Positions 6,013 to 63,797 of a stretch of 64,000 bases of DNA are shown in pieces. A program made the position numbers and the translations under genes. The stretch comes from Selaginella moellendorffii. Lineage: Eukaryota; Plantae; Lycopodiophyta. Location: assembly GCF_000143415.4 (NCBI RefSeq), contig NW_003314290.1, forward strand, positions 731,111 to 795,110, in the 5' to 3' direction. How positions within the stretch are numbered: the stretch's first letter is position 1; each line of letters opens with the position of its first letter. The notes under the pieces are model-generated. The model was not told where the DNA came from. It ran no database searches and worked only from the letters and a program-made list of their open reading frames with translations.

Positions 6013-7371
6013 TGTAAGGAACCAACTCCCCGAGGTGTTGTAAGCTAAAGGATCCTCGAAAACATGACCGAAATGATAAAGAATTCATTAGATGGAACTG
6101 AGTCTGAGATCGAGTCCAAGACCGAGTTTGAGACCGAGTTCAAGACCAAGCTTGAGACAGAGTCCGAGATCCGAGATCAGGTCCGAGACCGAGTCCGAGT
6201 TTAAGTCCGAGTTCGAGTCTGAGGTCGGGTCTGAGGTTGAGTCCGAGATTGAGTTCAAGACTGAGTCCGAGGTTAGGTCCGAGATCGAGTTTGAGATCGA
6301 GTCCGAGACCGAGTCCAAGTACTAATACAAGTCAAGGGGTTGAAGCCCAAAGCGTGCGTCTCCCAAGGGGGGGGGAGGGGGGGGGGGGGGAGCATTGTAG
6401 GGGATTCCAAAAGTATAGTAGGGATAATGAGGTCCAAGAATCAGTCTTGAAAGAACTCTCTAGTGGTGCTTCCAAACTGATTTGAGGTTGATACTGAGGC
6501 CGAGGGGCCTTGAGTGGGAGTGAGCATGGACTCGGGTGGTGCCAAAAGGGCCACCCAAGGAAGTGGCCAAAAGCAGCTCCCACTCTCAGAAGGGAAACTG
6601 ACTGTAGTGCTTATGACTCATGTGGAGTTGTGCCCCACTTGAGTGCCTTGCGGCTCATTGGTCCTCACCCTTCCTAGGGGCTTGGGCCTTCCCTTCGGGA
6701 TGGAGGTGGGGGGTGGGGGGTAGAGGGCCGTTAGGCCATGGTGTTTCCCCCTAGCGTCCCGAAGCAAGTGTTACACCCAAGGCTTAGGATTTAGAGGGTC
6801 CTATGATCAAGTCTTATTGTACCAAGGGATGTTAAGAACTTAAAGGTTTGGTGTGCTTGGCTGCTTATGCTTGTGGGGAGTGTAGCCAAACCTTAAATCC
6901 AGTCTAACCTAGAAAGGGGGATTAGGAGAGATTTGGGAATCTGTGGAGGGGGCGGGGGGGGGAAGTAGAGGTACCTATACTAGACCGTTAGGTTAAAGTG
7001 TTTCCCCCCGACATCCTAAAGCAAGTGTTGCACCCAAGGCTTTGGATTTAGAGGGTCCTATGATCAAGTCTTGTTGTACTAAGGGATGTTAAAAACTTGG
7101 AAGCTTAGTGTGCTTGACTGCTTGTGCCTGTGGGGAATGTAGCTGAATTTTAAGTTCAGTCTAACTTGGGGAGGGGGATTGGGAGAGATTTGGGAATCCA
7201 TGGATGGATGGCTAACGCTCTGTTGCTTGTGCAGTGAGTAGTTAAAACTAAGTATAAGCTGGTACAATAGGCAGGTACCTTGGTGAGGGAACTTAGCTAA
7301 AACCAAGGCAGTGCTGGTCGGATAGACAAAGTAAGCTAGCAAATTGGAAAGGAAAAGTTTTGTGGCTTACA
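6013..7371 (+). mobile_element. Solo LTR of the chromovirus family found at 57251-63800, with 5-bp TSD CAAAT
   Basis: Starts TGTAAGGAACCAACTCCCCGAGG and ends TGTGGCTTACA, the same termini as the LTR at 57251-58165. CAAAT is present at 6008-6012 and 7372-7376. It contains a GAGTCCGAGATC array, a poly-G tract and an internal ~240-bp duplication. Confidence 0.93.
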
Positions 7372-25311: not shown

Positions 25312-25487
25312 TGTGAGTGCTTGGAATATGGAAAGGGAATACAAAAAATGTGCATATCAATTAGCCCAAAAACTCTAGCTTATATATAAGAGCGAGTGGT
25401 CCGCATTGAAACCAATCTGACGGCTACTAAAATCCCACTTTGCTAATATTAGTATACGGCATCGTAATTGTACACTTGGGCCTCACA
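25312..25487 (-). mobile_element. Short (176 bp) 3' LTR of a minus-strand gypsy element
   Basis: Termini TGTGAG...CTCACA, PPT GAGAGGAGGGGA just upstream on the minus strand, internal TATATATAAG; directly follows the integrase end. Confidence 0.8.
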
Positions 25488-36638: not shown

Positions 36639-38072
36639 TTAACTGTCGTCCATGTACTTTTCTTGAACAGCAGCATTTGTATCTGCCAGTGATCAAGGAG
36701 GGACTAGAAACAAAGAAACGATAGAAACAGATTGATAGGAAAAAAGGATATCTGTAGTAGTCCCAGTTAAGAGGCCCAGCAGCAATTTTGCTGAACTCTC
36801 TCATGTTTCCTTCGATTCCTGAAAAGATGTAGCCATTGCATTTGTCGACTAGTTTCATGAGATCAGCCACACTCTCTTTGTCCTGTAAAAAAAAAATCTC
36901 TTGCTCCTACATTCAAGAGGCAAACGAGGTTGAGAAACTCACCTGGATGTTCAGTGTTGTAAAGCTGACCAGCGAGTAATCGCCCACAAGCTCACAGAGA
37001 CCCTCGGTTAGTTTCCTGCGAGTATGTTCTTCAAAGTTCGAAAGCAAGGTCAATAGAAGCGTTACCTGTACTTAGCCATGCGGGGATTTTGATCCAAATG
37101 ATCCACCAAGTAGCTCAAGTCTTGAAGGTCTGTGTAAAACTCCAAATTGTACGCTGCAGACGTCTCGCACGAATGAGACGCGTCTCAAAATCGATAAATA
37201 GCAATAACGAGCGAAGATCTCACCAAGTTTGCCATATTGTTCGATAAGATCGATCTTCGAGAGGACGTTTACATGCGGAAGCTCCAGGTGCATCATTGTG
37301 TTTAGTGATAAAAGTGACGCCGAAATAAACTTCCCAGGATCGCTGCACAAGTGAGCGTCAACAAGGTGGACAGCGGCCAACTGCACACAAGCTGCGAATT
37401 TCAGCGATATAAGAACTAAAAATCGGAGTATCAATGGAAAATCTAGAAATAAAAGTAGCTCACCCGATAGTCCCACTTGGTTGTCATCTCGTCGATTACT
37501 TTCTTGGCGTTGCTGTGTAGTGTGAAGAGCTCGACTTGACCGGGAAAATCAAAGAGAAAGTAGTGATCTAAGCCAAAAGGCAAGCATGAACGAAACCAGC
37601 ATTTGAGCGAAAGCAGTACCTTTTTCTAAAGGCTTGAGCTTGTTCTTGAGCCAGTCTATATTCATCATCAAGTAATCCATGCAGTAGATTAGACCTGCAA
37701 AAACTCCAGAAAATAAGCTAGAAACCAAGTCCAAAGCAAACTCTCACCTCCATTTGGCCCCAAGTTGTATTGATTCATTACATCTTCCAGCCTCACGAGC
37801 TCCGCAATGTTTACAGCACACTCATACCTTTGAAAAAACAATTCCATCACTCTTTGCTCACATTCTAGCGCAAACTTACGGTAGCCAGTCATTGGCCGGA
37901 TCGAGATTGATCACTGCGGTTTTCCTGACACAAAACTTCGCTATAAGAAACCCCCGCATTCGCGATCGCGCGACGCTTACCTCCCAATGAGACCGAGGAA
38001 TTGCTGGAGACCATTGCAGTAAGTCGTCTTCCCGGATCCGGGCGGGCCTATGACGATTTGCCCAAACACCAT
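36639..38072 (-). CDS. GPN2: GPN-loop GTPase 2 (QQT1 orthologue), multi-exon, last intron AT-AC
   Basis: [42 protein letters not shown] and [15 protein letters not shown]. Splicing the AT-AC intron gives the end WDYYR|[12 protein letters not shown]. Confidence 0.94.
36679..36751 (-). other. U12-type (minor spliceosome) AT-AC intron
   Basis: 5' site ATATCCTTTT, branch-like TCCTTGATC and terminal AC; removal restores the frame and the conserved C-terminus. Confidence 0.88.
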
Positions 38073-38387
38073 CGCATAAACCCTAGAAAAATATTTAGGG
38101 CTCTTTGTTGATGTGGACGGCTAGGATAAGCGCAGTATTTAATTACGGAATATTACTAGGCGACGGATTGGACGGTCAGGATTTGTCAGACAATACAACG
38201 GCGGGAGAAGGAAAAAAAAACACCGTTGTTCTTCCCAATTTCTCTTTAGATCAGGGTTTGGCGAGGACATAGCGTCACCGATCGGCCATCGCGATCGCGG
38301 CCGTGGGAGCTCCATCGCCTTCTCCGGGTGTGCATTCCCGATCTTCCGCAGCTGCAGCGGGGCGATCGCATTCGATCTTGATCAGGG

Positions 38388-38969
38388 ATGACGCTAGGGT
38401 CGGGGCTGCCGCTTTGCCTCGCCGGGATCGACATTTCTCAGCAGGTTTCTTTCCCCTCTCTTGGATCTCAACACTGTTGACCATATTTCCAGGCTCGCTG
38501 CGTGAGGCAATACAAGAATGCCACTCGAGAGGCTCCACTTTGCGGCGATTCAGCGTCGTCCTCTGGAGAATCGCGGTAAGGTTTGTGCGTTTTGTTGTTC
38601 TCTTGAGTCTTGGCTTGATGGAATCTTCTATTTCCATTTTCGTGTCAGTAGAAGAGTAAATGACCCTTACACGTCTTCCAGAAGCGAGGATCGCAGTGAT
38701 TCCGGCGTGGATATGGTGACAGAGACAAGGAAGGCATTCTTCCGCGTGGGACTAGCCAAAGAGTGAGTTGGGCGATCCTTTGTTGGTGAGAGTGATGGTT
38801 TTTTCTTTCTTTCCACAGGATGGAGTTCTTAGATCGCAGGCGAGAGGCGCTCAAGGAGCAACAACGAACACGGCAGGAGGAGCAACTTAGACGACTCAGG
38901 GAAGTGATAGAATCTAGAGCAACCCAAAGTTTCGATCCTGTCCAGTCCCATGGAGCTAGAGCTGCGTGA
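38388..38969 (+). CDS. Uncharacterised 4-exon small protein with charged C-terminal coiled coil
   Basis: Three short GT-AG introns join a single frame: MTLGSGLPLCLAGIDISQQ|ARCV...GESR|RRVNDPY...GLAKE|MEFLDRRREALKEQQRTRQEEQLRRLRE...ARAA*. It is divergent from GPN2. Confidence 0.55.
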
Positions 38970-39399
38970 TATATGTCTTTTTCCCTGACCCAGCATCCTT
39001 TCCACAGTGTGACCACTTTGGGAAGTTATGCTCCACTGTGTTTATTGTCTTCATGGTTTTCCTGTTAAAACATTCGATCGACCTACAGGATAAATTTGTC
39101 TCGATCGATCGTGTCAAATTGTCAATTGTCGTGAGGTAACCTCTTGAACTAAATCATCCTGTTCACTTTTTCTGTTGCTCGCAGATTCTCTATAAGCTTT
39201 GCTGCGCCCCACTGTGGTGGAATGACAGCCAGGGAACGCACTGAACCAAAGCTTTGGTACGGTTGCAGTGGTATTTATGATGTCCTGGAGAGTGTTCGCT
39301 CACGATTTTCAGGTGCTTTCAAAGTTCTTGCGCAGCTCTTACGCAGCTCATCAATTCTTTTCACTCACGCTAACACTCGTCTCTGGTCTTACATCCAGG

Positions 39400-40062
39400 A
39401 TGGATTCTTTCAGGATGCATTCGTTGGGAACTCCAGTACTGCTTTCGTTCGCGATCGTGACAGTCGTGTTTCTGTCAGTGGTATCATCCGACCCGGATCC
39501 TCTCCAGGACTTCTGCATCGCGGACCTCACCGCCGGCATCAACATCACCGGCTTTCCTTGCAAGAACCCGGCGCTCGTCACCGTGGACGACTTTGTCTAC
39601 TCCGGCCTGGTGCCGTCGGCCAACATTAGCAGCATCGACCGCGCTGGCGCAATCTTTGGAACAGTCCAGCGCTTCCCGGGCCTCAACACTCTGGGCCTCT
39701 CCGTGGCCAGGCTCGACATCGATGTGGGAGGGATCATCGTCCCTCACGTCCACCCCCGCGCCTCGGAGCTCGTCTACGTAGAGAGGGGCAGTGTCTACGC
39801 GGCGGTGGTGAGCTCCACCGGCAGGCTGTTCGCTAAAGTGATCCGCAGAGGAGAGGTGATGATCGTCCCCAGGGGTCTCCTCCACTGGCAAATGAGCACC
39901 GGGGGATCGCGTGCCAAGCTCATTGTCACGCTCAACTCCCAGTTTCCGGGGATCCAGTTCATCGCGAGGTCCATGTTTGGGCCCCAAGTTCCAGACGAGG
40001 TGCTGCAAAAAACGTTTTTTCTCGACAAGGAAACGATCGCTCGTGTTCGTTCCAAATTCTGA
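39400..40062 (+). CDS. Germin-like protein (cupin)
   Basis: Signal peptide, DPDPLQDFCIAD, GFPCK, FPGLNTLGLS, germin box PHVHPRASE and GLLHWQ. Confidence 0.94.
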   Translation: MDSFRMHSLGTPVLLSFAIVTVVFLSVVSSDPDPLQDFCIADLTAGINITGFPCKNPALVTVDDFVYSGLVPSANISSIDRAGAIFGTVQRFPGLNTLGLSVARLDIDVGGIIVPHVHPRASELVYVERGSVYAAVVSSTGRLFAKVIRRGEVMIVPRGLLHWQMSTGGSRAKLIVTLNSQFPGIQFIARSMFGPQVPDEVLQKTFFLDKETIARVRSKF

Positions 40063-40126
40063 ATTCTTTCCCTTCCTATAACGTACAAATTTATTATTGT
40101 AGTGATTAGTTATGATTTACAGTAAT

Positions 40127-40198
40127 GGAGGTATAGCTCAGCGGTAGAGCAATCGGCTGCAGTCCGATGGGTCGCTAGTTCAATTCTGGCTTCCTCCT
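40127..40198 (+). tRNA. tRNA-Cys (GCA)
   Basis: Cloverleaf: D arm GCTC-AGCGGTA-GAGC, anticodon arm ATCGG-CTGCAGT-CCGAT, T arm GCTAG-TTCAATT-CTGGC, discriminator T; T-run terminator downstream. Confidence 0.9.
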
Positions 40199-40301
40199 CC
40201 TCTCTTTAACGCTTTTCTTTTTAATTAAAAAAATTAAAGTTTGTGAGAAACTTGTAAAGCTTATTTCCAAACTTCGATTTCTAAGATTTTGGACTTTTGG
40301 A

Positions 40302-41325
40302 TCAAACGACTAGTTCATCAAGTTGAACTGGTCCGCCGTTAAATGTGTAGCGAGCGTAGCCAGCATTTTCTTTGCACTCCTCGGACAAGAAAAACTTTGA
40401 GGAGTCTACCCCTGCAATTTGGCGAACGGAAGATCGTAGAACAACGAAGCTTGAGCTTACTTTTGATGACAAAGACTCGAGAGAGGTATTTCTTGTAGAT
40501 GTACATGTAGCTCGCAGCTTCGTCTGATAAATCCGAGATCACAAGCTTGCAACCCTGCTCCGATGGAGATTCTTTGCTACAAAGCTTGAGGTTATAAACT
40601 GGAGAAGAGATTTAAGAGCTATACCTTGCGTGTTCCATTGCGTCCAGGCAAAGTGCGAGGGAGTCGACCATGGCAACTTCCAGAGGCTGTCCATCGCCTC
40701 CATCGTCTTCGTAAATCCTGCGTGAGAGAGAGACAAAGTTTTCGAGCGAGAGGAAGGAATTTCGGCGCAAGCTTACCAGTCCTCGAAGAACTCCGAGAAG
40801 CTGTCGATGATCACTGCTTGCGGCAATGGATTTGCGAGATGGAACGCGGCAAAGTACTTGTCCAGATCTTCGTCGTCGCTCACGTACCTATATACACAGA
40901 TGGAATTTTGGATCGATCGATCGATCGATATAGAGCTCTCACTTGAACGAAATCCTCCGCAAGTGCTGGGTGTCCAAGTCCTGCTTGATAGAATCTCACA
41001 TTCATTCAAAGAGAAGGAAAGCGAGAGAAAGAATGCCATGCCTCTGGTAAAGATGGAGGATCATTCTCCATGCTACTGCGCTTGCAAATGATCACAACGT
41101 TGGACAATCCCTGCTCGGAGACGAGATTGATCGCGAAGTGAAAGAGCAGCGTCGTTTTTCCTCTAGAAAAAAAGAGAGAAAATGAAGGCGATCGCAAGAG
41201 CGACATCTATCTTACGAGCAGGATGGCCCCGTGAGAAGCACCGAATCTACACCATCGCTGGCATTTTTATCCGGAGCGATCGCGCGACCACGATCCAGAA
41301 AGAACTTGTGTAGTAGCGCGCCCAT
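40302..41325 (-). CDS. RecA/RAD51-paralogue-like P-loop protein (SWSAP1-like), multi-exon, one GC-AG intron
   Basis: Walker A VLLTGPSCSGKTTLLFHFAINL split by an intron, Walker B-like AVIIDSFSEFF, and YFAAFHL. The intron at 40981-41041 starts GCATGG. Confidence 0.72.
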
Positions 41326-41401
41326 AAACCCTAAAAGGGTGGAAATAAAATGCTAAAATGCTAAGGGTTTACAGATCCATTTTTTTTTCGCGATTGGATT
41401 C

Positions 41402-41973
41402 ATGGGCGATCTCAGCGCGGCAGAGGTCGCCAAGCACAAATCCGCGACCGACTGCTGGTTCATCATAAATGGCAAGGTAATTAGCTGCTAATCACCCAAG
41501 AAGAAAAGAGTGCTGAGCTTAGCTATGGCGTCCATAGGTGTATGACGTGACGAATTTCCTGGTGGATCATCCCGGAGGCGAGGATGCCTTGCTGGCCGTC
41601 GCAGGTAACCGCGGATTTCTCCACAAAATCTCCCAAATTCGATCGATGTTTCATCTCCTTCCTCACAGGCAAAGACGCGAGTCAGGATTTCGAGGAGGTC
41701 GGGCACAGCGACAGTGCCAAGGAGCAAATGGAGCAATTCCTGGTGGGATTCGTGGAGGGCTACGCCGGCGACAAGGATTCCATGCCCGCGAAGCGATCCG
41801 CGGTGGAGGAGGAGGAGGAAGAGGAGGAGCCCGTGATGCGCCCTCTCGCGATTGATCCGGCGGATCGGCCGAGCGTGTTCCTAAAGTACGTGGTGCCGCT
41901 GCTGCTGCTGTGCTTGGCATTCGCGCTCCAGTTCTTCGGCAAGAAGAAGAACCCCGAGGACCCAAGCTCGTGA
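41402..41973 (+). CDS. Cytochrome b5, tail-anchored, 3 exons
   Basis: DCWFIINGK|VYDVTNFLVDHPGGED...GKDASQDFEEVGHS and a C-terminal transmembrane segment. Confidence 0.95.
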
Positions 41974-43076
41974 AGGGGCGAATATTTCCTCGCAAACGAA
42001 TATACGAATTCATTAGTGTTAACCTGCATGGTTCTGTTAGCAAGAAATAATACGATTATCAGAGTCGATCCTGCGACCTGTTGGAAATTAGCCTACGACG
42101 CTAACGCTGCGCCACTTCACATGAGTCAAACCCGGGTCAAAGTTCTCATTGGCGCGAAAAAGTGTACGGACGCATGGCTTGATTATCCCTAAGAAAATTC
42201 CAGAGTAGTACCTTCTTGATAAATAGATAGACAGATAGATAGATAGCGAGTATATAGGTATGAGCTTAGGCTAGCCTTTTTTTTTTTCGTTGCTACCACC
42301 AAGACACAAAAGCAATCCTTCCCCACGGCATTTTGCTTGCTTGCTCGTTCCAGAGGAACAAAAGCAACGAACACAAATCATTGTTCCCGCCCCCTTGATG
42401 CTCGGCAAGGCGGGGGGAAAATTTCCGCCGTCCGTACGTTGTTCTAGGGCACGGAAAAGGAAAAAACGCGGCCATGTCATGCGTTCGAATCGCTCCACCC
42501 GCAACGCGCACTTGCCCGCCCCCAGATGCCGCCCGGTATCATATCATATCCCCACATTCATGGGGAGAAAAACCACACACGCAGAGGCGAGAGCCCTAAA
42601 ATTCTCCATGTGTTTGAAGACGTGTGGCCTGCGCCACGGGCGAGTTGCTGTCCAATCCCCGCGCGCCGCAGATGCCTTCAGCGGGCATTTGCTGCATACA
42701 GTGCAATGAATCAGTCCTTTGGTTTGCAGTACCGAAAAAATGCCCGTCCATCGCCAGTCTTTGGTTTGGCTTGGCTTGCTTCTTCTTGCTTTGTGCTGTG
42801 TTGGTCATGGTTTTTAATTTTATTTTATTTTTTTTAGCGTGGCTTGTTTGTTCTTTTGCTGTCCCGCGTTGCTATATAGCGTGGCCAGCGCCACGCACTT
42901 GTTCTCTCCAACAGAGAGCTCCAAGCGATCTTTTCTAGCGTCGAGAGGATTTTCGCGACATCGATACGAGCGAGCCACTCCTTTTTTGCGAGGATATCTC
43001 CCGCGAGAGAGAGGGGAGAGGGAATCGTGGTGGAGTAATCTTTGGATTGTTTCTTTCTTGGAAGGGAGAGGGAGAG

Positions 43077-44588
43077 ATGGAGCTGCGCGTGAGGAAGTAT
43101 GATCCTTCGGGCGACGCGAGGCGAGTGGAGGAGCTAGAGCGGCTGTGCGACGCCGGGCCGAGCGGCTCCATGTCGCTCTTCGCGGATTCCATGGGCGATC
43201 CGCTGGGGAGGGTGCGGCATTTCGCGCTCTACACAATGCTGGTAGGGAATCCCTCCTCCAATTCCAATTCCCTCCTCCTCGCCCGATCGATCGATCGGGC
43301 TTCCATTCCCTTTTTCTCGGCCGCCATGGATGGTTTCTTGATGTTCTTGATTTCCAGGTCGCCGAGATTGGCGAGGAGATTGTGGGAGTGATCCGGGCGG
43401 GGATCAAAGAGATGGTGTGCGGCAGGAAGCGGCTGAGCGATGGCAGCGGCAAGGAATCGGCCGTTCGCGCTCGCTGCGCCTACATTCTCGGCCTCCGGGT
43501 GTCGCCGCTCCACAGGTATCGATCGATCGAGAGAAATTCCCCTCCATCGCTTCCTCTCCCTTGTTCGTGATTGTCCCTTGACAAGACGAGATTCTTCTCT
43601 CGCTTCCTTGTTTCTTGGCGATTTTCTCTGACGATGACTGATCGCTGGTTACAGGAGGAAAGGGATCGGCCTGGCGCTGGCGAGGAGGATCGAGCAGTGG
43701 TGCCGCGACAAGGGTGCCGCCTACGCCTACATGATGACCGAGAAGAGCAACGTCGCGTCGTCGGGGCTGTTCGTGGGCAAGCTCCAATTCCGCCCGGTGC
43801 GCAGCCCCAGCATCCTCGTCCACCCCGTGTTCCAGCACTGGGAATCGATTCCCTCCCACATCCGCCTCACGCGCCTGGCACCCGCCGACGCCGCCGAGAT
43901 CTACCGCTGCTACAGCGGCGCCACCGATTTCTTCCCCGCCGCGGACATCGATTCCATCGTGGGCAACGCCCGCTGCTGCGCGGGGACCTGGCTCGCCACG
44001 CTCAAGGCCGAATCAACGCCGAGCTCGGGCATGGCGGCGCCGCTGGACCGCCGCCACCCCCGCCGCCAAGTCTCCGTGAAGAAGCTGCTCGAGGGGGTGT
44101 TTAGCTCGTGGGCGGTGGTGAGCGTGTGGAAGACGAACGAGATCTTCACGCTGGAGGTGAGCGGCGCGCCGTGGCGGATCCGCGCGGCGGCGGCGGCGTC
44201 GCGGGCGCTGGATCGCGCGCTGCCGTGGCTGCGAATCTCCTCCTTCCCGGACGTATTCCAGCCGTTTGGGATCCACTTCCTCTTCGGGATCGCGGGCGGC
44301 GGCGCGCGATCGGGCGAGCTGGTGGCGGCGCTGTGCAAGAACGCGAGGAATGTGGCGCGGCGGAATGGCTGCGCGGTGGTGGCGGCGGAGATGGGGGCGG
44401 CGGACCCTCTGCTCGGATCGGTGCCGCATTGGAAGAGCTTGTCCACCATGGACGATCTGTGGTGTGTCAAGGACTTGGTGGGGATCAAGAACACCGGCGC
44501 CACCGTCACTGCCACGCCCGATTCGGGCGAGAATTGGATGGATTTGCCCATGGGCTCCTCTGTTTTCGTGGATCCCAGGGACTTCTAA
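43077..44588 (+). CDS. HOOKLESS1-like GNAT N-acetyltransferase, 3 exons
   Basis: VEELERLCDAGPSG..MGDPLGRVRH, AYILGLRVSPLHRRKGIG, AYAYMMTEKSNVAS and the C-terminal VFVDPRDF typical of the HLS1 family. Confidence 0.92.
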
Positions 44589-45687
44589 GGCCTATAGCAA
44601 GTGCTGACAAACTCCAGGATCACCATCACTCTCTCACTCACGCGCAATCGATCCACACGAACGCGGTTTTGGCGGAACGACTTTGTCTGATGGATCGATC
44701 TCACTGCCTGCGATCGCGGGCACTACAATTCTTTCTCGTTGGCCCGTTCCGCTCGATCGCAAGAGATTCGTGGAAGATCTATAGCTCCAGACCAATCAAC
44801 GCGAATCCGCTACGTATGATTCAAGCATTTCACTCTGCCAGGAAAGGAAGAACACCAAAAGTGTGACGAGCGAAAAACAAAGCAAAAGCTGTTGGTTTGG
44901 TGGTTGTTTTATTCGCATGATTAGTAAAAGTTGACGGTGTGGTGGTACTGTGATGAGGAAATATAGATATTGTAGCCTATAGCATTCATAAAAAGTTGGC
45001 ATCCCATTGGTGTGTCTCTGAGATATGCAAAGTTTGGCTCCTTCTCTGCAAATTTTTATTCGATTTTCCTGTTATTTGTTTATTTTGGCCCAGCCAGCCT
45101 CTGTTGTATAGGTAGATTGACAGACAGAGACTGGGGAGCTCCAAAAAATACACACACAAACACACACAACACTGTTGTGTTTCCTCTCTTTTTGTGTTAT
45201 GTGTGTGTTTTTGTCCTTGGGGGGCGAATTCTTTGTTTCTTCTTTGGATTTGAGTAGAGGGCAATGGCAGTGGCTCTTTTGTTGCTGTTGCTGGGCTTGT
45301 CGGTGTATGGCTCGACTGGACCCGTGCTGCTCGGCATAAGATCGACAGACACTCCACCGCGATTTACAAGACTTTAAAAACCGGGCATTGTGTTTCTTAT
45401 GCTAAGTTGATGGTGTGTGTCCGCGGCCAAGCCTCTTTGGATCCTGCATTGTCTAAATAGACAATGCTTGGTTGCGCGATGAATCAATCCCACTTGTAGT
45501 AGAGCTATTGTATAAAACATAGGGGGACTGTACGGAGGGTGGGGCGTGCACGCCACCAAAGTTTGGCTTCCAAACATTGTTCTTGAAGAAGAGCATATCA
45601 TGATCGATGACCCGGAAAGATTTTTTTCTTTCTTCTTTTATCTCTTTGTTTGTTCTATGTCTGTTCTTGTCCTTGGAAGAGAACTTT

Positions 45688-45865
45688 GGCGGGGATGCTG
45701 TACTTCCGCGGCAAAGTGATTCCGTACGTGCGAATCTATCTATCCTTTTGCTGGTAGATTCTCTGCATGCCGACGGCCGACCCCACTCGCTATGCCCATG
45801 CCCAAGTCGGGCATATCGTAATTGAGACTCGCATGCACGGGGTTATTCCAGTGTAGATTCCCGCC
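45688..45865 (+). ncRNA. Candidate pre-miRNA hairpin
   Basis: 45715-45737 pairs with 45825-45847 (2 mismatches, several G:U pairs), and a lower stem 45688-45704 pairs with 45850-45865. It lies in a gene-free, microsatellite-rich 3-kb interval. Confidence 0.6.
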
Positions 45866-48110
45866 CCAGCTCGCGCTCGCCGGGGAATCTTCTTTCTCTT
45901 TCTCCGCTCGTCTCGTCTTGGTCGTCTATGTGTTCCTTGGCTGGCTGGCATTGATTGATTGATTGATTGGAATGGGCAATGCAAATGGATGGATCAAGGA
46001 GCGATCATGGTTTTGTTGTGGAAAGGTGGCGTGGGAGCCTCGCCAATCGCCGTAACCACAAAAGCATGGAAAGCACAAAGGGGATGGGAATTGAAAGCAA
46101 GCGAGAAAGAAAGCAATCCAAGCAATCCAAGCAATAAGCAAGCATGCACAACGCGAGATGCGCACGTTACACAATGGTATTATAAAGGCCAGAGCACGAG
46201 CAAGCTAGCTGGAGGAGGACTGGATCATAGACAAAGAATCAAAACAATAAAAACAGTCGGCTCGGTTCTAGCTTTACTAGCAGCCATTCTCCAATTCTCT
46301 CAACATCGCTTTGTGTCATTGATGCAATCGATCCCTCGCAACCGGACAGCGATCGAGTATGAAAATGGCGGTGTTGAGGAAGAACTAATATGAAAAGTTT
46401 TACGAAACTTCTCCCGCGCAGATCAGGACAAATTGGAACTCAATAAGATAGAGCGGGTGTAACATGATGTGTCGACCGATGGGGATGGATTGAGTTGGAT
46501 TGGATCAAACAGCTAAACCGCGCTCAAGGAGAAAAAGAAATGGATCTCAGGCCTGGAAGGAACATGATGTGTCCGTGGATGGTTCCACACAGAGCTTTCC
46601 CATAAACACAAAGCTCGCCACCAGTCCATCACCACTTGTTTGTTACCCATATGTGCAGCAGTGACACTAAACCTTTGGCGGCGTTTAATAGCTCTTTCTC
46701 TTTCGATCGATCGTTCTCTCTTTCTCTTTCTCTCTCTCTCTCTTTCTCCCTGCAAAAAGAGGAAGTGGAAGCTCTGGATTAAGTACTCCTCCGGATAGTT
46801 TTTAATGAGAGGTGGAAGAAAAGTATGAGGGAAATCAGAGAAAGGGAGGAAGGATTGGAGTGGCAGGGTTGTTGCTGTTGATGGTTGAATTGAAGGCGAG
46901 CGCGGAAAAAATCGGCTCCGATGGCCCGAGATGGATGGATTTTGATTGATGGAAATTGACTTGCTCGCTCTCTCTCTCTCTCTCGGCGAGACGAAAGAGG
47001 GTAAAGTTTTCCGGATGGAAGAGAGATAGCAAACGGTTGAAGCTAGCTTTGACGCGGGTCGCTTTCCCGCAATTTGGCTCTCTCTCAACTCGTGAAAATC
47101 TCTCTGGCAATTCCCCCAGCCTGCGCTGCGAGTAAAGAGAGATTTGTAAGCTTTGCCTGATGTTTGCTACCCTACCGCGCACAGAGATTGCGCAATTTCT
47201 CTGTGCTTTGTAAAACCATCGCCACAGATGTGGCTTTCAATCTCCACACATTGCCATCACTCGCTCCCACCACACAAAGTCACACGCACGCACACACACA
47301 CACACACACTTAGTTCGCGTTTGATTTCATTTGGTTTCCTCTCTTTTTGGTAAAAAAAAAAGGAGAATGAGATCAACCCAAGTGTCACCATTGCCACCGG
47401 AAACTTTATGCGAGCAGAAGCTCGCAGAGCGACAATAAAAAACAGAGGAAGCACTGCTCCCTTTTTCAGCTGCCTGTAAAATTTTTTTGGCTTGTTCCAC
47501 TTCCCCTGCATTCGCGGTACTGCAGCTTCAAAATTTTAAATTCAATTTTTTTCAAAAGCCAAAAAGCGTACATAGTAGACGTACCTTCAAATTGGCGACA
47601 GCCACGTCACCGTACCGCACGGCTTGGATAATGATTACGACGCGCTGCACGCTATCATTGTGTTTTGGTTGGCGCCGTTACAGTTCTGTACCGCCCAAAT
47701 GGAGAATTAGAATATTCGCCATCATATCACTTAATTAATTCTGTTTTTAAAGTAGCAAAACGGAATTAATGAGATAACCGAGTTAACCTTTTTTTGTTGT
47801 AGTTTAATTGTACCACACTGTAAGTATGGAATTCATTCAACTCAATGAAGGGCAGCCAAAAAGACTGCCCACAATCTTTCAGCCACCTAACGCATCCAAA
47901 CAAAATAAATGGCCAGAAAAGGGAAGATCTTACTGCCGATCATGCATCAATCATCCGGGGCGAGATTGATGAACTAGAGGCCAGGCGAAAGCGCTGTTAT
48001 GTTATCAATCCCTCCTTGTCTCGACAATTGCTCAAAGGATGCGCGGGGCTTGGTCCTGACAGAGAAGGATTGTTGCTGTTAGCGAATGACTGACGTTTCC
48101 AGTGACCCCC

Positions 48111-50355
48111 TCACGCTATGTAGCTTGGGACGACCCGAGAGTGGGGGGGATAGGCTTTGGCTTTACCTTGTTGGATGCAAAGCTCCAGCTCCTCTATCGT
48201 TTTCGGAATGGACGCTGAAAGAACCTGGGAGGACAGCGACTTAAAGTTAGCTTGGATCCACAAGCGAGAAACATATTATCACCTCGTAACCACTGTCGGT
48301 GATAAGAACCTCATCCTCAATACGTATGCCAATGCCACGGTACCTGGATTAGCTCGGCTTGCTCAATCGGCTCATGGGAATACATCAAATTTTGCTGACC
48401 TGTCTGGGACATCGGCGTCCTTTGGAAAGTAGAGGCCCGGTTCTATTGCTAAAACCTGACAGGAACGTATCATATAAGCACAAAACGAAAGATCAACAGA
48501 ATGTGTACGTACGTACCATACCAGGGCGGAGGGATTCTCCCCGTGACACTCCACCAGAATCATGGACATCCATCCCGAGATAGTGTCCTTCAAGCCAAGC
48601 AAAACACGTAAGTCACTCGAACAAGAAAACTGCAGTCGCGTACCGATAGCTGTCGGATTAAATTTTCCAACGTCTGGTGGGGAATGTCCTTGTCCTTTGA
48701 TACCAAGACCGATCAGAGCCTTCGACAACAGCTGCATCTGTAAGGCAGCTGTACCTTCAGAACCGTATCACAACTCGTTTTTGTAACAGCTGCTTACAGA
48801 GTGCGAGTGGATTTGTAGTAGATTCGCACCAGGATGGCACAACTTGAAGCACTCATTCATTGTTGATAGAACAATCTCATAAATTTCCCTCTGCAATAAA
48901 ATAATCTTGCTCAAGGACGAGTTGAAAACGAAGCAAGCACAGACCTGGGCCGGGCTAAAGGACCCGCAAGGTGGCCAAGTCCGTGTGATATCACTGACGT
49001 ATCCGTGAAGCTCGCAGCCAGCATCCATAAGGACCAAGTCTCCTTCCCGAATCTAAGCAACAAAAAAGAAAAGTCGGCCTCCAAACTTTGGAGCAAGAAA
49101 TCTCACTCGTTGGTCGTTCCTAGAGTAATGTATTACGCTAGCATTTGCTCCACTTCCTACAACAGGAGGAAACCTGCAAGTATGAAACATAGCAACATAT
49201 GAAACGGCAGGAAGAAACTAGTAGCGAACGGAAAAAGCAAGCACTTAAAAGATCAAAGAGTTCCAGGTTTACGTTAGCAATATAGTCCTTACGCCATGCG
49301 CTGGGCTCCTCTGATTTTTGATTCGTACTCTATGGTAGCAGCCAGCAAATGTTCGTGCGGCCAGTGCTTTGACGTCTTTATAGTTTGTATGAATGCCTGC
49401 AAGATTGCAGCCAGTTAGGCAATCCATGTGCATTGACAACAAGCGCACGCGTACCTGTGAACTAATATCCGCTACCCGCTTCATCAAGCTGATCTCTGCG
49501 GGCGATTTAACAACTCTGATTTGGCTAGAATGTGGAGACAGGCTCCTCAACTTGTTCTGTTCGAAGGCCTCTTGAATTTTCGAAACCTTCCGGAACGTAG
49601 GACTCAGTATGTTCTCGTTACAATATACACCGCTGGCATACTTGACCATCTCACCAAAATACTATAAAGTGAAGAAAGTTAGCAACGAAAAAGCGCGAAC
49701 AAACATAACGAACCTTTGGAATTTCGGCTATTGTATACGTCTCATTGGCGTGAAAAACAGACAGTGCAGCTTCTTTGTCCGCTAGAGTTCCATCCCACAC
49801 AGACCGCTGTAATTGTTTTTTTCTGATCATGTTTTTTTCCGGTAAAAAAAAAATATCATAGCCTTACCTCGGGATCTGGATCAGAGACGAGCATACAAAG
49901 ATCGCCATTGGCTTTGATCACCGCTATTCCACCAGGCTGTTGGCAGCCAGTATAGTAAAGATAATCCGAGTCTGGCCGATAAGGATAAGGAATGATATCA
50001 CTCATCGTCTTGATCGGCGCAGAGCTTATCGCTACCAAGCTGTTCCTGGGAAGAATCGACATCAAGCTCTTCCGTCTTTGCTGGAACTCGGCGGCCGAAA
50101 TCCCGGGCATAATCTCCCCTGCCTCAAGAAGCTGACAAACAAGAGATCAAAAACAGAGACGATCGCTCATCCAAAATCTCACCTCCGGATGCGTTTCGGG
50201 CGTCGGCTGCCCCGCATTGATCGCCGCAGTGGAGATCGGCCTTGAAATGCGTGTCTTCCACAGCACAAGGACACATTACGCGCGCTGGACGATCGCATTT
50301 CTCTCACCTGGAGCGCTCGTCGGATCGGCGCCATCAGGGAGCGCCTCGTCGCCAT
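48111..50355 (-). CDS. ICP55: Xaa-Pro aminopeptidase / mitochondrial intermediate cleaving peptidase 55, multi-exon
   Basis: Transit peptide, QPTPETHP, PGISAAEFQQRRK, YPYRPDSDYLYYTGC, VLMDAGCELHGYVSDITRTWP, LAIEPGLY and GIGIRIEDEVLIT. Confidence 0.9.
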
Positions 50356-57250: not shown

Positions 57251-58165
57251 TGTAAGGAACCAACTCCCCGAGGTGTCGTATGCTAAAGGATCCCTGAAAG
57301 CATGACTGAAATGACAAAGAGTTCATCGGATGGGACCGAGTCTGAGATCAAGTCCAAAACTGACTCTGAGACTAAGTTCGAGATAGAGTCCAAAATCGAG
57401 TGTGCATCTCCTTGGGGGGGGGGGGGGGGGGCTGTAGAGGGTTCCAAAAGTATAGTAGGGATAGTGAGGTCCAGGAACCAGTCTTGAAGGAACTCTCCAA
57501 TGGTGTTTCCAAACTGACTTGAGGTTGAGATTGGGGCCGAGGGGCTTTGGGTGGGAGTGAGCATGGACTCGGGTGGTGCCAGAGGGGCCACCCAAGGAAG
57601 TTCTTAAGAGCAACTCCCACTCCCGAAAGGGAGACCGACTACGGTGCTCCCGACTTATGTAGAGTGGTGCCCCATTTGAGTACCTTGTGGCTTATTAATC
57701 CTCTCCCTTCCTAAGGGCTTGGGCCTTCCCTTCGGGATGGAAGTGGGGGGTAGAGGTACCCATACCGGGCTGTTAGGCCATGGTGTTCCGCCCCGGTGTC
57801 CCGAAGCAAGTGTTTCATCCAAGGCTTGGGATTTAGAGGGTCCCATGATCAAGTTTTGTTATACCAAGGGATGTTAAGAACCTAGAGGCTTAGTGTGCTT
57901 AACTGCTTATGCCTGCGGGGAGTGTAGCCGAACCTTAAGTCTAGTCTAACTTGGGAAGGGGGATTGGGAGAGATTTGGGAATCCGTGGATGGATGGCTAA
58001 CACTTTGTTGCTCGTGCAATGAGTAGCTGAAACCAAGTAGGACCAAGTAGGAGCTAGTACAATAGACGGGAACCTTGGCGAGGGAACTTAGCAAAAGCCA
58101 AGGCAGTGTTGGTCGGATAGATGAGGTAAGTTGGCAAATTGGAAAGGAAAAATTTGTGGCTTACA
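57251..58165 (+). mobile_element. 5' LTR of a chromovirus (Ty3/gypsy)
   Basis: TGTAAGG...GCTTACA; homologous to the LTRs at 63387+ and 6013-7371. Confidence 0.95.
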
Positions 58166-58168
58166 ATT

Positions 58169-58180
58169 TGGTATCGGAGC
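58169..58180 (+). promoter_or_regulatory. Primer binding site (tRNA-iMet)
   Basis: TGGTATCGGAGC, one mismatch from the canonical TGGTATCAGAGC, 3 nt after the LTR. Confidence 0.88.
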
Positions 58181-61100
58181 CTTTTCCTTAGTTCTAGCAA
58201 AGGATAGAGGCGGATTGCTGGGAGATGGCAAAGGCAAGGCAGAAATGAACCAAGGCGGAGACAAAACCTCCTCTAGAACTGGAGCCTTTGGTTGAACAAG
58301 AGGCTATGGATGAGGAATCCTTGCATGATGAGGACTTTAGTGAGGAAACTTCCAAACAGGAGTCCGATGGTGAGGTTCGGTTGTCTAAGGCTCGATTGGA
58401 CGTTCTGGAAGGACAATTGGCATAAACCAATGCCCTGCTGGAGACTCTCGTATGCAAGCTAAAGCGTGACGAGAAGTGGAAGAAAAAGAGAATGACTGCG
58501 AATGTTGGCAGCACAGAAGGTGCGGACCCTTCAGTATGGACTGAGGCAAAACCAAACAAGGTCGAACAGACTGAAGTGGAATAAGTCCCTCAGGCAGTTC
58601 CCAAGTACAAACCAAAGCCCCCACCGATCTTCAAGGGAGTGAACGATTATAAGGTGGTGGAGGATTAGTTTTACGATATGGAGGACTACTTCCAAGCGTT
58701 GCGGTTACCGAGCTCGGAGAACATCCCATGTGCAAAACCATACTTGGCAGATAATGCCAAATCTTGGTGGATAGCAACGGAGGCCAACGAAGGACCGGTG
58801 GCCACTTGGGAAATGATGAAGGCGAGGATCCGCGTGACATATGTTCCTCCAAATGCTACTCTGCACCTAAGGGATGAGCTGAGTAGGCTGAAGCAAACCG
58901 GAACCAATCAAGAGTATGTGAATGGATTTATGGCAAAAAGGATACTGGTCACGGATATGGGTGATATGGATGTGTTCCATGCCTTCATATCAAGCTTGCA
59001 AACTTGGGTTCGCAGCGAGGTGATGCGTTAGAACCCAACCAATTACAAAAAAGTGTTGGATGTGGCTATCAAGGTGCATTTCAACAATAACCTGCGAAAG
59101 GGGAACACGACGGGGTCGGGGTCCACGTTTAGCAAAGGGGCCAAACCAAGGGGAATATATAGCAAAGGGAAATTCAAGAAGAGTTTCTCTAAGAATGAGT
59201 CCTCGGGGTTTCGGAAAGGCAGATCCGGTGGCCAGCGAGCGAGTACATGGGGGAGTCAAGCAGAAAAAGACAAACCCACAGATAAGAAGGGCAAGTTAGT
59301 TAGCAGCGTGGGAAAAAACATATGCTACAACTACGGTGAAGCGAGACACTTCTCGAGGGAATGTCCCTACCTGAAGAAGGCTAGAGCCAATATGGCCATT
59401 AAGTCGAGTGAAATCCAAACTAAGGTATGTGATCTAGTCCCTAGCTCAAAGTTACTCATTACACGAGCAACTTTGGTAGAAAGTCATTTGCAACATCTAC
59501 TAGCCCTCCGAGGGAAGCTTGGAGGTAGCTTTGTTAAAATCCTTATTGACACAGGTGCTTCGGATAATTTTGTGGCTGCAGATATAGTCCGGCAAGCCAA
59601 ACTAACGGTGCAGTGGCTGAGCGAACCAAGGACTATAGAGTTTGTTCAAGGCAGCCAAAGCACCAATGAGGTACTTCAACAAGCGAGAGTCGAAATAGGG
59701 ACATAGAAAGTAGACATGGATTTCACCGTGTTGGACATGGCGGGATTTGACATAATTTTCGGGATGGATTGGTTCAATCGGTTCGTGTTAGCTTTGCATA
59801 GACAAAGTAAAAACCTTGTGGTACTAACGAATGCCCAAGGAAGGAGATCTAGGGTGAAGGCCTAGGATCTAAAGGTAGGGCAATGCAAGGCTAAAGATTC
59901 CTACCTAAACCTAGTGTCCATGAGAGGACAACTCACTAAAGGAACCAAGGTAGCATTTTTCTGCTTACTCTCGGTGAAGAGTGACAAAAAGATGGGAATG
60001 GAAGAAGTACCTTTAGTGATCCAACAGGTGTTGGACCAATTCCAAGATACCATGCCAGAGCAGCTATCAGCAGGGTTGCCCCCCGCATGACCTATAGAAC
60101 ATAAGATTGAGTTGGTCGAAGGTGCCAAGGTGGTGGTTCGTCCCCCTTATCGTTTGAACAAAAAGGAACTCAAGGAGCTCAAGCGCCAATTAAAGGAATT
60201 GGTGGACAAAGGGTATGTTAGGTTGAGCAAGTCGCCATATGGGGCGCTGGTGTTATTTGTGAAAAAGAAAGATGGATCTATGCGCATGTGCATAGACTAC
60301 CGGTTGCTCAACAAGTATACAAAGAAGAACAAATACCCTTTGCCAAGGATTGAGGACTTGTTCGATAGGTTGGGAAAGGCAAAATACTTCTCGAGGATTG
60401 ACCTAAGGTCAGGATACTACCAGATTAAGGTAGCAGAGGAAGATATCGAGAAGACAACCTGTCGAACAAGGTATGGGAGCTTTGAGTTTCTGGTGATGCC
60501 CTTTGGGTTATGCAATGCGCTGGCAATGTTTTCGGCGTTGATGGACCACATCTTTGTACCCTATCTGGATCACTTTGTGGTCGTTTATATTGACGACATC
60601 TTGATCTATAGCGAAACGCTAGAGGAGCATGCCGAACACTTGACGAAGGTGTTTGAAAAACTAAGGGAACACCAGCTATATACTAAAAAGAGCAAATATG
60701 ACTTTGCTCAACAAGAGGTAAAGTTTCTCAGGCATGTCGTGGGCAAGGACGGGCTCAAGGTGGACCCTGAGAAGGTCTAAGCGATCTACGATTGGGAACG
60801 ACCATCGAATGTACACGAGTTAAGGGCATTCTTGGGGCTATGCAACTACTACCGAAAGTTTATCAAACACTATTCAAGAGTAGCCCTGCCTTTAACGGAC
60901 CAAACAGAAAAAGGGAAGATGGTATGGATAGCGGAATGCAAGGCGGCATTTGTCCACCTCAAAGGGAAATTGAGGAAGGCTCCCGTGTTGGCGTTACCAA
61001 ACTTTGGTAAGGACTTTGAGGTAGAAATGGATGCTTCGGACTTTGTGTTGGGTGAAGTGTTGAAGTAGGACAACCATCCAGTAGCGTTCTTCTCAAAAGT

Positions 61101-62085
61101 TGGACAAGGCTTAGCAAAAGTGGCCTGCCCACGAGAAGGAATTGTTTGCGGTGGTCAAGGCGCTCAAGGAATGGAGACATTTCCTTAGGAAACACTTCAA
61201 GGTTTACACGGACAACGTGGCAATGAAACACTTCTTGTCACAACCCGACCTGAGGGGGAAACAAGGTCAGTGGGCCAATGCTTTGGCTGAGTTTGATTGC
61301 GAGATTCTGTACAAGCCTGGGAAGAGCAATATTGTGGCGGATGCGCTAAGTCGAAAAGCAAGCTTGAAGTTGGCAATATCCAACGCGACAACAACCTTTT
61401 GGGATGATATGCGGACCGTATACGAGAACAATGGTCTAGCACAAGAAGTGTTTCTCAGGAATCTAGAGGCACAGGAAGCTCACTAGAGAGGTGAGCTACT
61501 AACGGAAGAAAAAACAGGCTATGCAAAACGCAACGGATTCATCTATTACAAGCAAACGAGGGTGTATGTTCTAGAAAGGGAACTAAGGAAAGTAGCCTTA
61601 GAAGAGTGTCATGACGGACTTCTTGCGGGACACGGGGCGATGGGCTTACTCAAAAGAAAGTACCACTAGCCAGATATGGCTAAGGCCATCCAAGATTATA
61701 TAAAGACATGCCTAACATGTCAGCAGGTCAAAGCCGTGACTAAGGCTAGTGGGGGCTTGTTACAAAGCATCCCAATTCCAGATCGTCCGTGGAAATGTCT
61801 TACGATGGACTTCATCACGGCACTCCCCCCACGTGAGGGGTTTGATGCGATATTCGTGGTGATGGACCGATTTTCGAAAATAGCACACTTCATACCCACC
61901 ACAACGAAGGTGGATGCAGAAGGTGTGGCAAAGCTGTTCTTCGAACAAGTGGTTCGAGTGTGGGGAAAGCCAAAGGAGATCATCTCAAATCAAGATAAGA
62001 TCTTCACCAGCAGATTCTGGAGAACTTTCTTTGGAACAGTATTGCACCAAGTTGAAATTCAACACAGCCTATCACCCACAGACAG

Positions 62086-62132
62086 GTATTTAGTATTAAG
62101 TCAAGTTGAATGGCACTAACACTTCTTGATAG
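62086..62132 (+). other. Spliceosomal-type intron (47 nt) within the integrase core
   Basis: AG|GTATTT...CACTAAC...TTGATAG|AT; removal gives HPQT-D-GQTERVN. Confidence 0.8.
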
Positions 62133-62550
62133 ATGGACAAACAGAAAGGGTGAATAGGTAGTTGGAGGATTATTTGCGATGCTATGTATCGGGAGACTAG
62201 ACTGATTGGGTAAGTTATTTGGGACTTGCGGAAATGTGCTATAACAACTCACCACACTCAAGTATCGAGGTGAGTCCATGGGAAGTCATCAATGGGCGAG
62301 CTATTGAAGGTCCTATAGAACTCGGCGTGGCCGAGTATCATGGAGAGTTACCCGCAGTGGAAGCATTCACGGCGGAAAGACTCAACATTTGGAATCTAAT
62401 GAGGGATTCCTTGGAACGGGCTCAACAAAGGCAAACCAAGTACGCGAACTAGAAGTGCCGGGATGTGGAGTTCCAAGCTGGGGAGAAGGTGTGGCTGAAC
62501 ACTAAGAACCTCAGGCTACTAAGTGGGATTAGCCGGAAGTTGACCCAAAG

Positions 62551-62601
62551 GTAAAATGCATATATTCTTGTAAATGAATTGATCTTAAGTTCCTTAAGTA
62601 A
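62551..62601 (+). other. Intron-like insert (48-51 nt) within the integrase GPY/F region
   Basis: AAG|GTAAAA, AT-rich, with an in-frame stop. Removal gives KLTQRFAGPY (51 nt, acceptor TAA, presumably a mutated TAG) or KLTQSKFAGPY (48 nt, AG at 62597-62598). Confidence 0.68.
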
Positions 62602-63386
62602 GTTCGCGGGGCCTTACGAAATTGAGGCACGAATCGGTAAAGTGGTTTACTATCTCCGACTTCCTCAAGAGATAGGGAAGTTGCACCCAATGTTCCACGT
62701 GAACTTACTCAAGTTGTACTTTGAGGATCTGCTTCGCAAGAACCAAGTAAGACCCTTACCTGAGGTTATCCAAGGGGAAGAAAAATACGAAGTGGAAGCC
62801 ATCCTTAATGCGTGCAAGAGCAAGTGATAAGGATGCGAGGTGAGAGAGTTCTATGTGAAATGAAAAGGATTTCCACACTGCGAAGCAATATGGGAACCAA
62901 AGGAGAACCTAGCGAACACATGAGATCTAGTGGAGGAATTTTTGCATGGCAGAACTCTATGTACTTATGCAAAGTTCAATTAAAAAGTATCAATTTGTGA
63001 AGTTGAACAATGGTATATGTTGGGACCCGAAGGCACGCCAAAGGTAAGCTAATTAGCATGGGTTAGCTAGGTCGACTAGGCATAGAGAACTACACCCGAC
63101 TCCCCACAGGGATGTTGAATCCGTAGGCGTATTCTACAGAGGTTGGGTTCGAGTCCCAACCCCCTAGTAAAGTAAGGCTAGGTTCAAGTCTCAACCCCAT
63201 ACTAGGGCATGGTGAGGTGAGGGGTATAGGGACACCTATATTCCGTTGTTATGGGCTCTTGGCTAGGGAGGCTAACTTAGGCACACTACTAAGTGGGGGG
63301 ATGCCCCCGAAGACATGATCAACAAGTCATAGGATAAAAAGAGACGTTCGATGTGGGCATCGAACTACTTCTATGGGTGGTGGAGT

Positions 63387-63797
63387 TGTAAGGAACCAAC
63401 TCCCCGAGGTGTCGTAGGCTAAAGGATCCCCGAAAGCATGACCGAAATGACAAAGAGTTCATCGGATGGGACCAAGTCTGAGATCAAGTCCAAGACCGAC
63501 TCTAAGACCGAGTTCGAGATAGAGTCCGGAATCGAGTTCGAGGCCGACTCGGAGACCGAGTTCGAGACTGAGTTCGAGACGGAGTCCAAAATCCGAGATC
63601 GAGTCCGAGACCAAGTCCGAGGTCGAGTCCGAAATCGAGTCCGAGATCAGGTCCGAGATCGGGTCCGAGAGCGAGTCCAAGACCGAGTCCAAAGTCGGGT
63701 CCGAGATCGAGTCCGAGACCGAGTCCGAGTACTAATACAAGTCAAGGGGTGAAAGCCCAAAGCATGCGTCTCCCGAGGGGGGGGGGGGGGGGGGGGG
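63387..63797 (+). mobile_element. 3' LTR (partial; readable up to the poly-G tract), preceded by a PPT
   Basis: GGGTGGTGGAG at 63375-63385, then TGTAAGGAACCAACTCCCCGAGG; contains the GAGTCCGAGATC array. Confidence 0.92.

Follow-up and report, generated by a model that had tools for sequence, protein, structure and literature searches.

A Ty3/gypsy retrotransposon at positions 57251 to 63797 of the DNA that we analyzed (a 64,000-nt stretch of the Selaginella moellendorffii genome, hereafter the window) has an integrase coding sequence that is broken by two short inserts with the character of spliceosomal introns. The feature is real, is present family-wide, and is at least partly spliced: DNA contigs of the family run through both inserts, and an RNA read joins the exons on either side of the first insert at the exact predicted positions. 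Below, we describe the element and the family to which it belongs, the evidence that the inserts are introns, and how an element that moves through RNA might keep them.

The element has the LTRs, the primer binding site, and the gag–protease–reverse transcriptase (RT)–RNase H–integrase order of Ty3/gypsy chromoviruses, with a Pfam match to the chromodomain (E = 8e-10) at the integrase C terminus, in exon 3 (Table 1). The primer binding site was assigned by comparison with what we take to be the consensus for tRNA-Met. Exon 1 is interrupted in this copy by stops and by frameshifts near 61094 and 62030; the latter bears out the original prediction, made from sequence alone, of a decayed copy with a 1-nt frameshift upstream of the first insert. 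Because its LTRs have diverged to the extent given in Table 1 and it has accumulated many stops and two frameshifts, this copy is old and dead. No target duplication for the full element was found within the window. The three LTR copies of the window contain poly-G tracts of 9 to 21 nt, and the solo copy (6013 to 7371) and the 3′ copy (63537 to 63770) share a block of short tandem repeats that the 5′ LTR (57251 to 58165) lacks. Positions 2420 to 2473 hold a short piece of this LTR that includes a poly-G tract of 23 nt, and a tandem array of short imperfect units, bearing a weak likeness to the reversed LTR repeat block, occupies 5400 to 5880, directly upstream of the solo LTR.

Table 1. Coordinates of the element's features and of a solo LTR of the same family, in window positions
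Feature	Coordinates	Strand	Description
5′ LTR	57251..58165	+	TG..CA, 915 nt; poly-G tract at 57414-57431; without tandem-repeat block
Primer binding site, presumed tRNA-Met type	58169..58180	+	One mismatch in this copy
Exon 1	58225..62085	+	gag, protease, RT, RNase H, integrase zinc finger, first two catalytic Asp; one frame by design
Intron 1	62086..62132	+	47 nt, GT-AG, CTAAC at 62116-62120, 32% GC, not a multiple of three
Exon 2	62133..62550	+	Catalytic Glu and remainder of integrase core; three stop codons in this copy
Intron 2	62551..62601	+	51 nt (+1 in some copies), GT donor, 24% GC, stop directly behind donor, acceptor decayed here
Exon 3	62602..62983 (end approximate)	+	GPY motif, SH3_Tf2-1 domain (PF24626), chromodomain (PF00385)
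Polypurine-tract-like stretch	63375..63386	+	5′ of 3′ LTR
3′ LTR, first part only	63387..63797	+	92.7% identity to 5′ LTR over 151 nt; similarity stops at poly-G tract
Solo LTR, same family	6013..7371	+	1359 nt; 5-nt target site duplication on flanks

Judged by its described features, the element fits SM1-Galahad, a family of S. moellendorffii reported in hundreds of copies, none of which was found to be intact (Novikov et al. 2012, PMC3350952). SM1-Galahad is described with LTRs of more than 1 kb containing poly-G tracts and with a tRNA-Met primer binding site (PMC3350952), and the two share these attributes (1,359 nt in the solo LTR) as well as their host and a high copy number; the 5′ LTR of our element, which lacks the repeat block, falls short of 1 kb. 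The host assignment is borne out by a window protein that is identical, letter for letter, to a public entry; of the six proteins in the cluster of that entry, four are named, and all four come from S. moellendorffii. The SM1-Galahad consensus has a 3885-bp ORF ending in integrase, followed by two short ORFs, the last of which holds the chromodomain (PMC3350952). Here, 3861 nt separate the first ATG of gag from the first donor site, a length close but not equal to that of the published ORF, and the chromodomain stands behind intron 2 as a separate short ORF. Thus, the broken ORF layout of SM1-Galahad is what two unrecognized introns produce. In the accessible text of the 2012 paper, on which the placement of the family in the Galadriel clade rests, “intron” and “splic” have zero occurrences, and the layout is taken as separate ORFs (PMC3350952).

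The first insert (GTATTT...CACTAAC...TGATAG) falls in phase 1 of the Asp codon of the motif TAYHPQT-D-GQTERVN, four residues before the catalytic Glu (we take the Glu of HPQTDGQTE to be the catalytic residue of integrase). It has the features of a U2 intron: a GT donor, a branch motif whose CTAAC is positioned 12 nt before the intron end, a YAG acceptor, and a GC content below that of its flanks (41 to 50%, against 32% in this insert and 24% in the second). Stretches of 47 nt that combine GT, AG, and a branch motif, all of which insert 1 has, number 1 in 5,171 within the element and 29 in 63,953 over the whole window. When scored against a profile of 240 homologs, removal of exactly 62086 to 62132 was the best of 42 splice choices (107.8 bits, with the next at 84.1), and the insert is absent from all 193 of the 240 homologs that gave a match to the motif. 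The integrases of Ty3 (HPQTDGQSE) and foamy virus (PQSQGKVE) align across the site without a gap. As an internal control, an unrelated and decayed second Ty3/gypsy remnant in the window (about 25480 to 28060, − strand) has no insert at the matching HP..L integrase motif. The extent, branch site, and location predicted for this insert therefore all agree with our coordinates and scores, and translation straight through it, which would have spoken against an intron, is excluded since 47 nt is not a multiple of three.

The second insert splits the integrase just before the GPY motif and contains an in-frame stop at 62552 to 62554, as predicted; its length, which had been given as 48 to 51 nt, is 51 nt. 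Removal of 51 nt yields the highest profile score (121.9 bits, versus 116.2 bits for 48 nt and 103.8 bits for the unspliced sequence), and the 48-nt version was rejected for its lower score and because family depth has an acceptor AG at the end of the 51-nt version. In this copy, the insert ends in TAA; an AG stands there in 95% of the depth of DNA run X1, in 96% of that of run X4, and in the single covering contig of run X5, and 23 X1 contigs carry a branch-like CTAAT motif in their loose ends. The U2 features (GT, branch motif, and YAG) are thus found in the family and not in this copy. The spacing in homologs is less clean than at the first site, being short in 115 of the 182 matched and longer in 67, and in the long-spacing examples that were inspected, the anchor falls on an earlier KL. 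At both introns, the exon end and the intron end share a direct repeat only a few letters long (62081 to 62085 with 62128 to 62132, and 62549 to 62552 with 62600 to 62603), and these repeats are more distinct across the family than in this copy. Short direct repeats at intron borders are typical of recent intron gain. A “self-regenerating” intron layout was rejected, as the border repeats here amount to a few letters.

The sizes of both inserts had been said to match those of host introns in the window, which is only partly so. Host introns verified by open reading frames (11 in two genes) measure 50 to 83 nt, and all those modelled (n = 24, 13 of them from a Xaa-Pro aminopeptidase model that gave no full frame) measure 50 to 119 nt, with a median of 58. 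The element introns lie at the low edge of these sizes: the 51-nt intron falls within them, and the 47-nt intron is shorter than all 24. A CTRAY motif occurs in the last 35 nt of 3 of the 24 host introns (36679 to 50307); element intron 1 has a textbook one, and some family copies have one in intron 2. The last intron of a gene for a GPN-loop GTPase (36679 to 36751, − strand) starts ATATCCTT, contains the branch-like TCCTTGAT, and ends in AC, after which the gene is open for 294 aa; from these letters, it is likely a minor-class (U12, AT-AC) intron. Elsewhere among the host genes, a tRNA-like sequence was seen by eye at about 40127 to 40198 (+ strand), directly behind a germin-like gene.

To follow the inserts across the family, we used 6 of 23 sequencing runs, namely, the DNA runs X1, X4, and X5 and three RNA runs (with X2, X3, and X6 to X20 outside). 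Run X4 carries another organism label, yet its differences nearly equal those of X1, and it is not counted as cross-species conservation. The family is abundant, given that 44,008 X1 contigs (a count of contigs, not of copies) align to the internal region of the element. The region of the inserts (61990 to 62709) is covered by 5,772 contigs (5,660 from X1, 96 from X4, and 16 from X5), and contig depth is continuous across both inserts. Among these contigs, none of the 14 joints listed removes either insert, joints down to a depth of 2 and a 35-nt skip being detectable; contigs drop rare variants, and one further joint appears outside the 14, so this list may be incomplete. Likewise, none of the 15 joints listed, of 88, in the alignment of the internal region removes either insert. 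An insert is spanned without a skip by, among others, X1 record 1, X4 records 9, 11, and 15, and X5 records 17 and 24. The inserts are, therefore, not peculiar to the copy in which they were predicted. Nor are their splice signals: these are kept across the family DNA, and among the 40 variants listed of 59, none changes either GT, the CTAAC, or the AG of intron 1.

The contigs that span the inserts range from diverged, low-depth sequences to dominant ones (48 to 132 depth), which bears on whether RNA copying ever had to retain the introns. Had the introns been gained in one copy that then spread at the DNA level, by segmental or tandem amplification or by gene conversion, their persistence would need no further explanation, and the 2012 table, in which the reconstructed family has an LTR identity of 90.2% and lacks a target duplication, is in keeping with such a history (PMC3350952). 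We nevertheless regard it as very improbable: the inserts are present in both old, diverged contigs and dominant, homogeneous ones, the window holds a solo LTR that is flanked by a target duplication of its own, and selection on the exons points to use of the protein.

Evidence for such selection comes from several comparisons. Relative to the window, contig 17 of X5 has no fewer than 9 differences in the 47 intron positions but no more than 18 in the 324 exon positions (worst-case Fisher P = 0.003). The three stops in exon 2 belong to this copy only (another letter stands there in 90, 96, and 96% of X1 depth), and exon 3 retains its SH3 and chromodomain matches. From these sequence patterns, selection appears to act on the exons as protein and on the inserts at their splice signals alone. 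It is hence quite unlikely that the family is non-autonomous, with an integrase killed by two insertions, an enzyme borrowed from an intact relative, and splicing that is incidental. The same genome does contain a candidate donor, SM2-Galahad, which is closely related and intact and has a single ORF (PMC3350952), and parasitic packaging is known for BARE2, according to published accounts; yet a GT, a branch motif, and an AG are present in both independent inserts, uniform decay would be expected of a dead integrase rather than intron interiors that drift faster than the exons, and in the family exon 2 is open and exon 3 holds two Pfam domains.

Three protein searches returned no proteins of the family (best identities of 40, 39, and 43%), a result that is, if weakly, as expected if no uninterrupted copy exists. 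A metagenome scan with the junction pattern gave 0 matches (the spacer length of the pattern is possibly off by one); a further metagenome scan yielded one distant locus, of 32% identity, at which neither motif was matched, and there was no match among viral contigs.

Transcripts were sought in three RNA runs chosen by species label, of which about 12% each (approximately 4,100 million letters in total) was scanned, yielding 11, 1, and 1 family reads, or 13 over 5.2 kb. One 150-nt read from run X21 covers 62040 to 62083 and 62131 to 62236 with a depth of zero between, such that 47 nt are skipped, and its joint is identical to the removal of 62086 to 62132; it is a single molecule, and the only read (1 of 1) that spans intron 1. 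The joint was read from depth in 24-nt bins (22+22+0+3+24+24+24+24+7 = 150 nt); the listing of joints starts at three reads. This read differs from the window in 10 places and is without two of this copy's stops, and so derives from another copy. The only read at the second donor (1 of 1) is unspliced: it enters the intron by six letters and then departs from the window sequence at the same place as 23 DNA contigs. Spliced transcripts, which the original prediction called for at both sites, were thus recovered for intron 1, in one exact read, and not for intron 2. Downstream, from the chromodomain to the polypurine tract (63042 to 63380), X21 reads are few, and all have their first mate on the + strand.

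Taking DNA and RNA together, we think that integrase is probably made only from a doubly spliced mRNA, with unspliced RNA serving as the genome; here, intron 2 is likely spliced, and the step that sorts the two RNAs is one that we infer. Unspliced RNA would encode Gag, protease, RT, RNase H, and an integrase stub that ends in intron 1, before the catalytic Glu. Splicing at intron 1 alone would expose the stop right behind the second donor and leave a core without GPY, SH3, or chromodomain. RNA spliced at intron 2 alone would have an early stop upstream of its junction and would likely be degraded, in line with the general rules of plant nonsense-mediated decay (NMD). The whole enzyme would be encoded only by RNA spliced twice. 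A single-frame LTR element needs Gag in excess over integrase, and splicing would set the dose of integrase relative to Gag in such an element without a frameshift. Tf1 of fission yeast, a single-ORF Ty3/gypsy element that must keep its integrase below Gag, reportedly does so by degrading integrase and not by splicing.

How the spliced RNA would be kept from reverse transcription is less apparent. The RNA that is reverse transcribed is likely unspliced, because no intron-free DNA copy was seen. By its sequence, the spliced RNA retains the primer binding site, the polypurine tract, and the LTR parts and so keeps all visible cis signals, meaning that nothing in the sequence explains its exclusion; folding predicted no unusual RNA structure around the introns (z = −1.66 and −0.24). 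The shared cis signals would be no puzzle if there were no dedicated sorting and spliced RNA were also packaged, intron-free copies being rare (as double splicing is rare), dead ends, or repaired through template switching with co-packaged unspliced RNA that restores the introns; the unspliced read at the second donor also allows that doubly spliced RNA may be scarce. We judge this unlikely, however, because the introns are independent and 418 nt apart, yet the loss of a single one is unlisted among the 5,772 contigs even though the sole read at intron 1 is spliced, and because dead-end copies would remain in the genome. If RNAs are sorted, as we favor, the process would most likely resemble that of BARE, with two RNA pools that have different ends or processing, the spliced pool being translated and the unspliced pool packaged. 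We offer more tentatively the further idea that an autonomous element uses the two introns as a dose valve for integrase and that spliced RNA, only 98 nt shorter and with all known cis signals, might be kept from reverse transcription by a mark left by splicing or by a packaging signal in or across the introns.

Parts of this scheme have precedents. According to a 2025 review, plant LTR elements lack introns as a rule, Ogre and EVD being notable exceptions. Ogre (a Ty3/gypsy element of the Tat lineage, described from pea and Medicago) is the nearest mechanism: it has one intron of ~274 nt between its GAG-PR and RT-RH-INT frames, which is retained in the genomic copies of the family and spliced from part of the transcripts to express the downstream pol domains (PMC6317226, PMC4408406, PMC3735527). 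The principle, therefore, has precedent, which the original prediction understated by holding that splicing in plant LTR elements mostly concerns gag/pol regulation, given that Ogre needs splicing for RT and integrase. The arrangement differs in that the Ogre intron, as described, is single and lies between frames, whereas here two host-sized introns inside one enzyme domain, one of them in the catalytic loop, gate integrase alone; an Ogre-type intron between protease and RT is absent here, a single frame running from gag through RT up to 61094. In the Ty1-copia elements BARE1 and EVD, splicing makes a Gag-only RNA, and BARE packages only an unspliced, uncapped pool (PMC3735527, PMC5580714). 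As in our element, a single ORF gives rise to spliced and unspliced RNAs with different uses, but the roles are opposite: on these accounts, their unspliced RNA makes the enzymes, and here unspliced RNA cannot make integrase. Foamy viruses are also reported to make pol enzymes from an mRNA that is spliced and distinct from the genome, although all of Pol is expressed through one large splice that removes gag and not through small intradomain introns (PMC7828637). Finally, spliceosomal introns are described as surviving retrotransposition in Penelope-like elements, including one Selaginella family with an inferred intron; unlike the present element, these are not LTR elements, have no DDE integrase, and replicate by another mechanism (PMC8557442).

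In the literature that we searched, introns are reported neither for this family nor for any LTR integrase (Repbase, REXdb, and most subscription journals were beyond reach, and an earlier note is possible). Two host-sized introns within the catalytic domain of an abundant LTR family thus appear to be undescribed. Intron loss is the textbook proof of RNA-mediated movement, and reporters of retrotransposition are built on it, as set out in the accessible text of PMC12786077. That a high-copy family keeps two tiny introns in an essential enzyme suggests that an LTR element can sort near-identical RNAs into message and genome, and it provides a compact, natural test case for RNA sorting in a model lycophyte. 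If a splicing mark or an intron-borne packaging signal proves true, it would constitute an undescribed form of discrimination between mRNA and genome and a natural exception to the rule that underlies retrotransposition reporters. With short direct repeats at the borders of both introns, the element is a clean example of introns gained within a known coding sequence. More broadly, families labelled as having no intact copy on the basis of ORF length may be intact and spliced, and repeat libraries may hide more of them.
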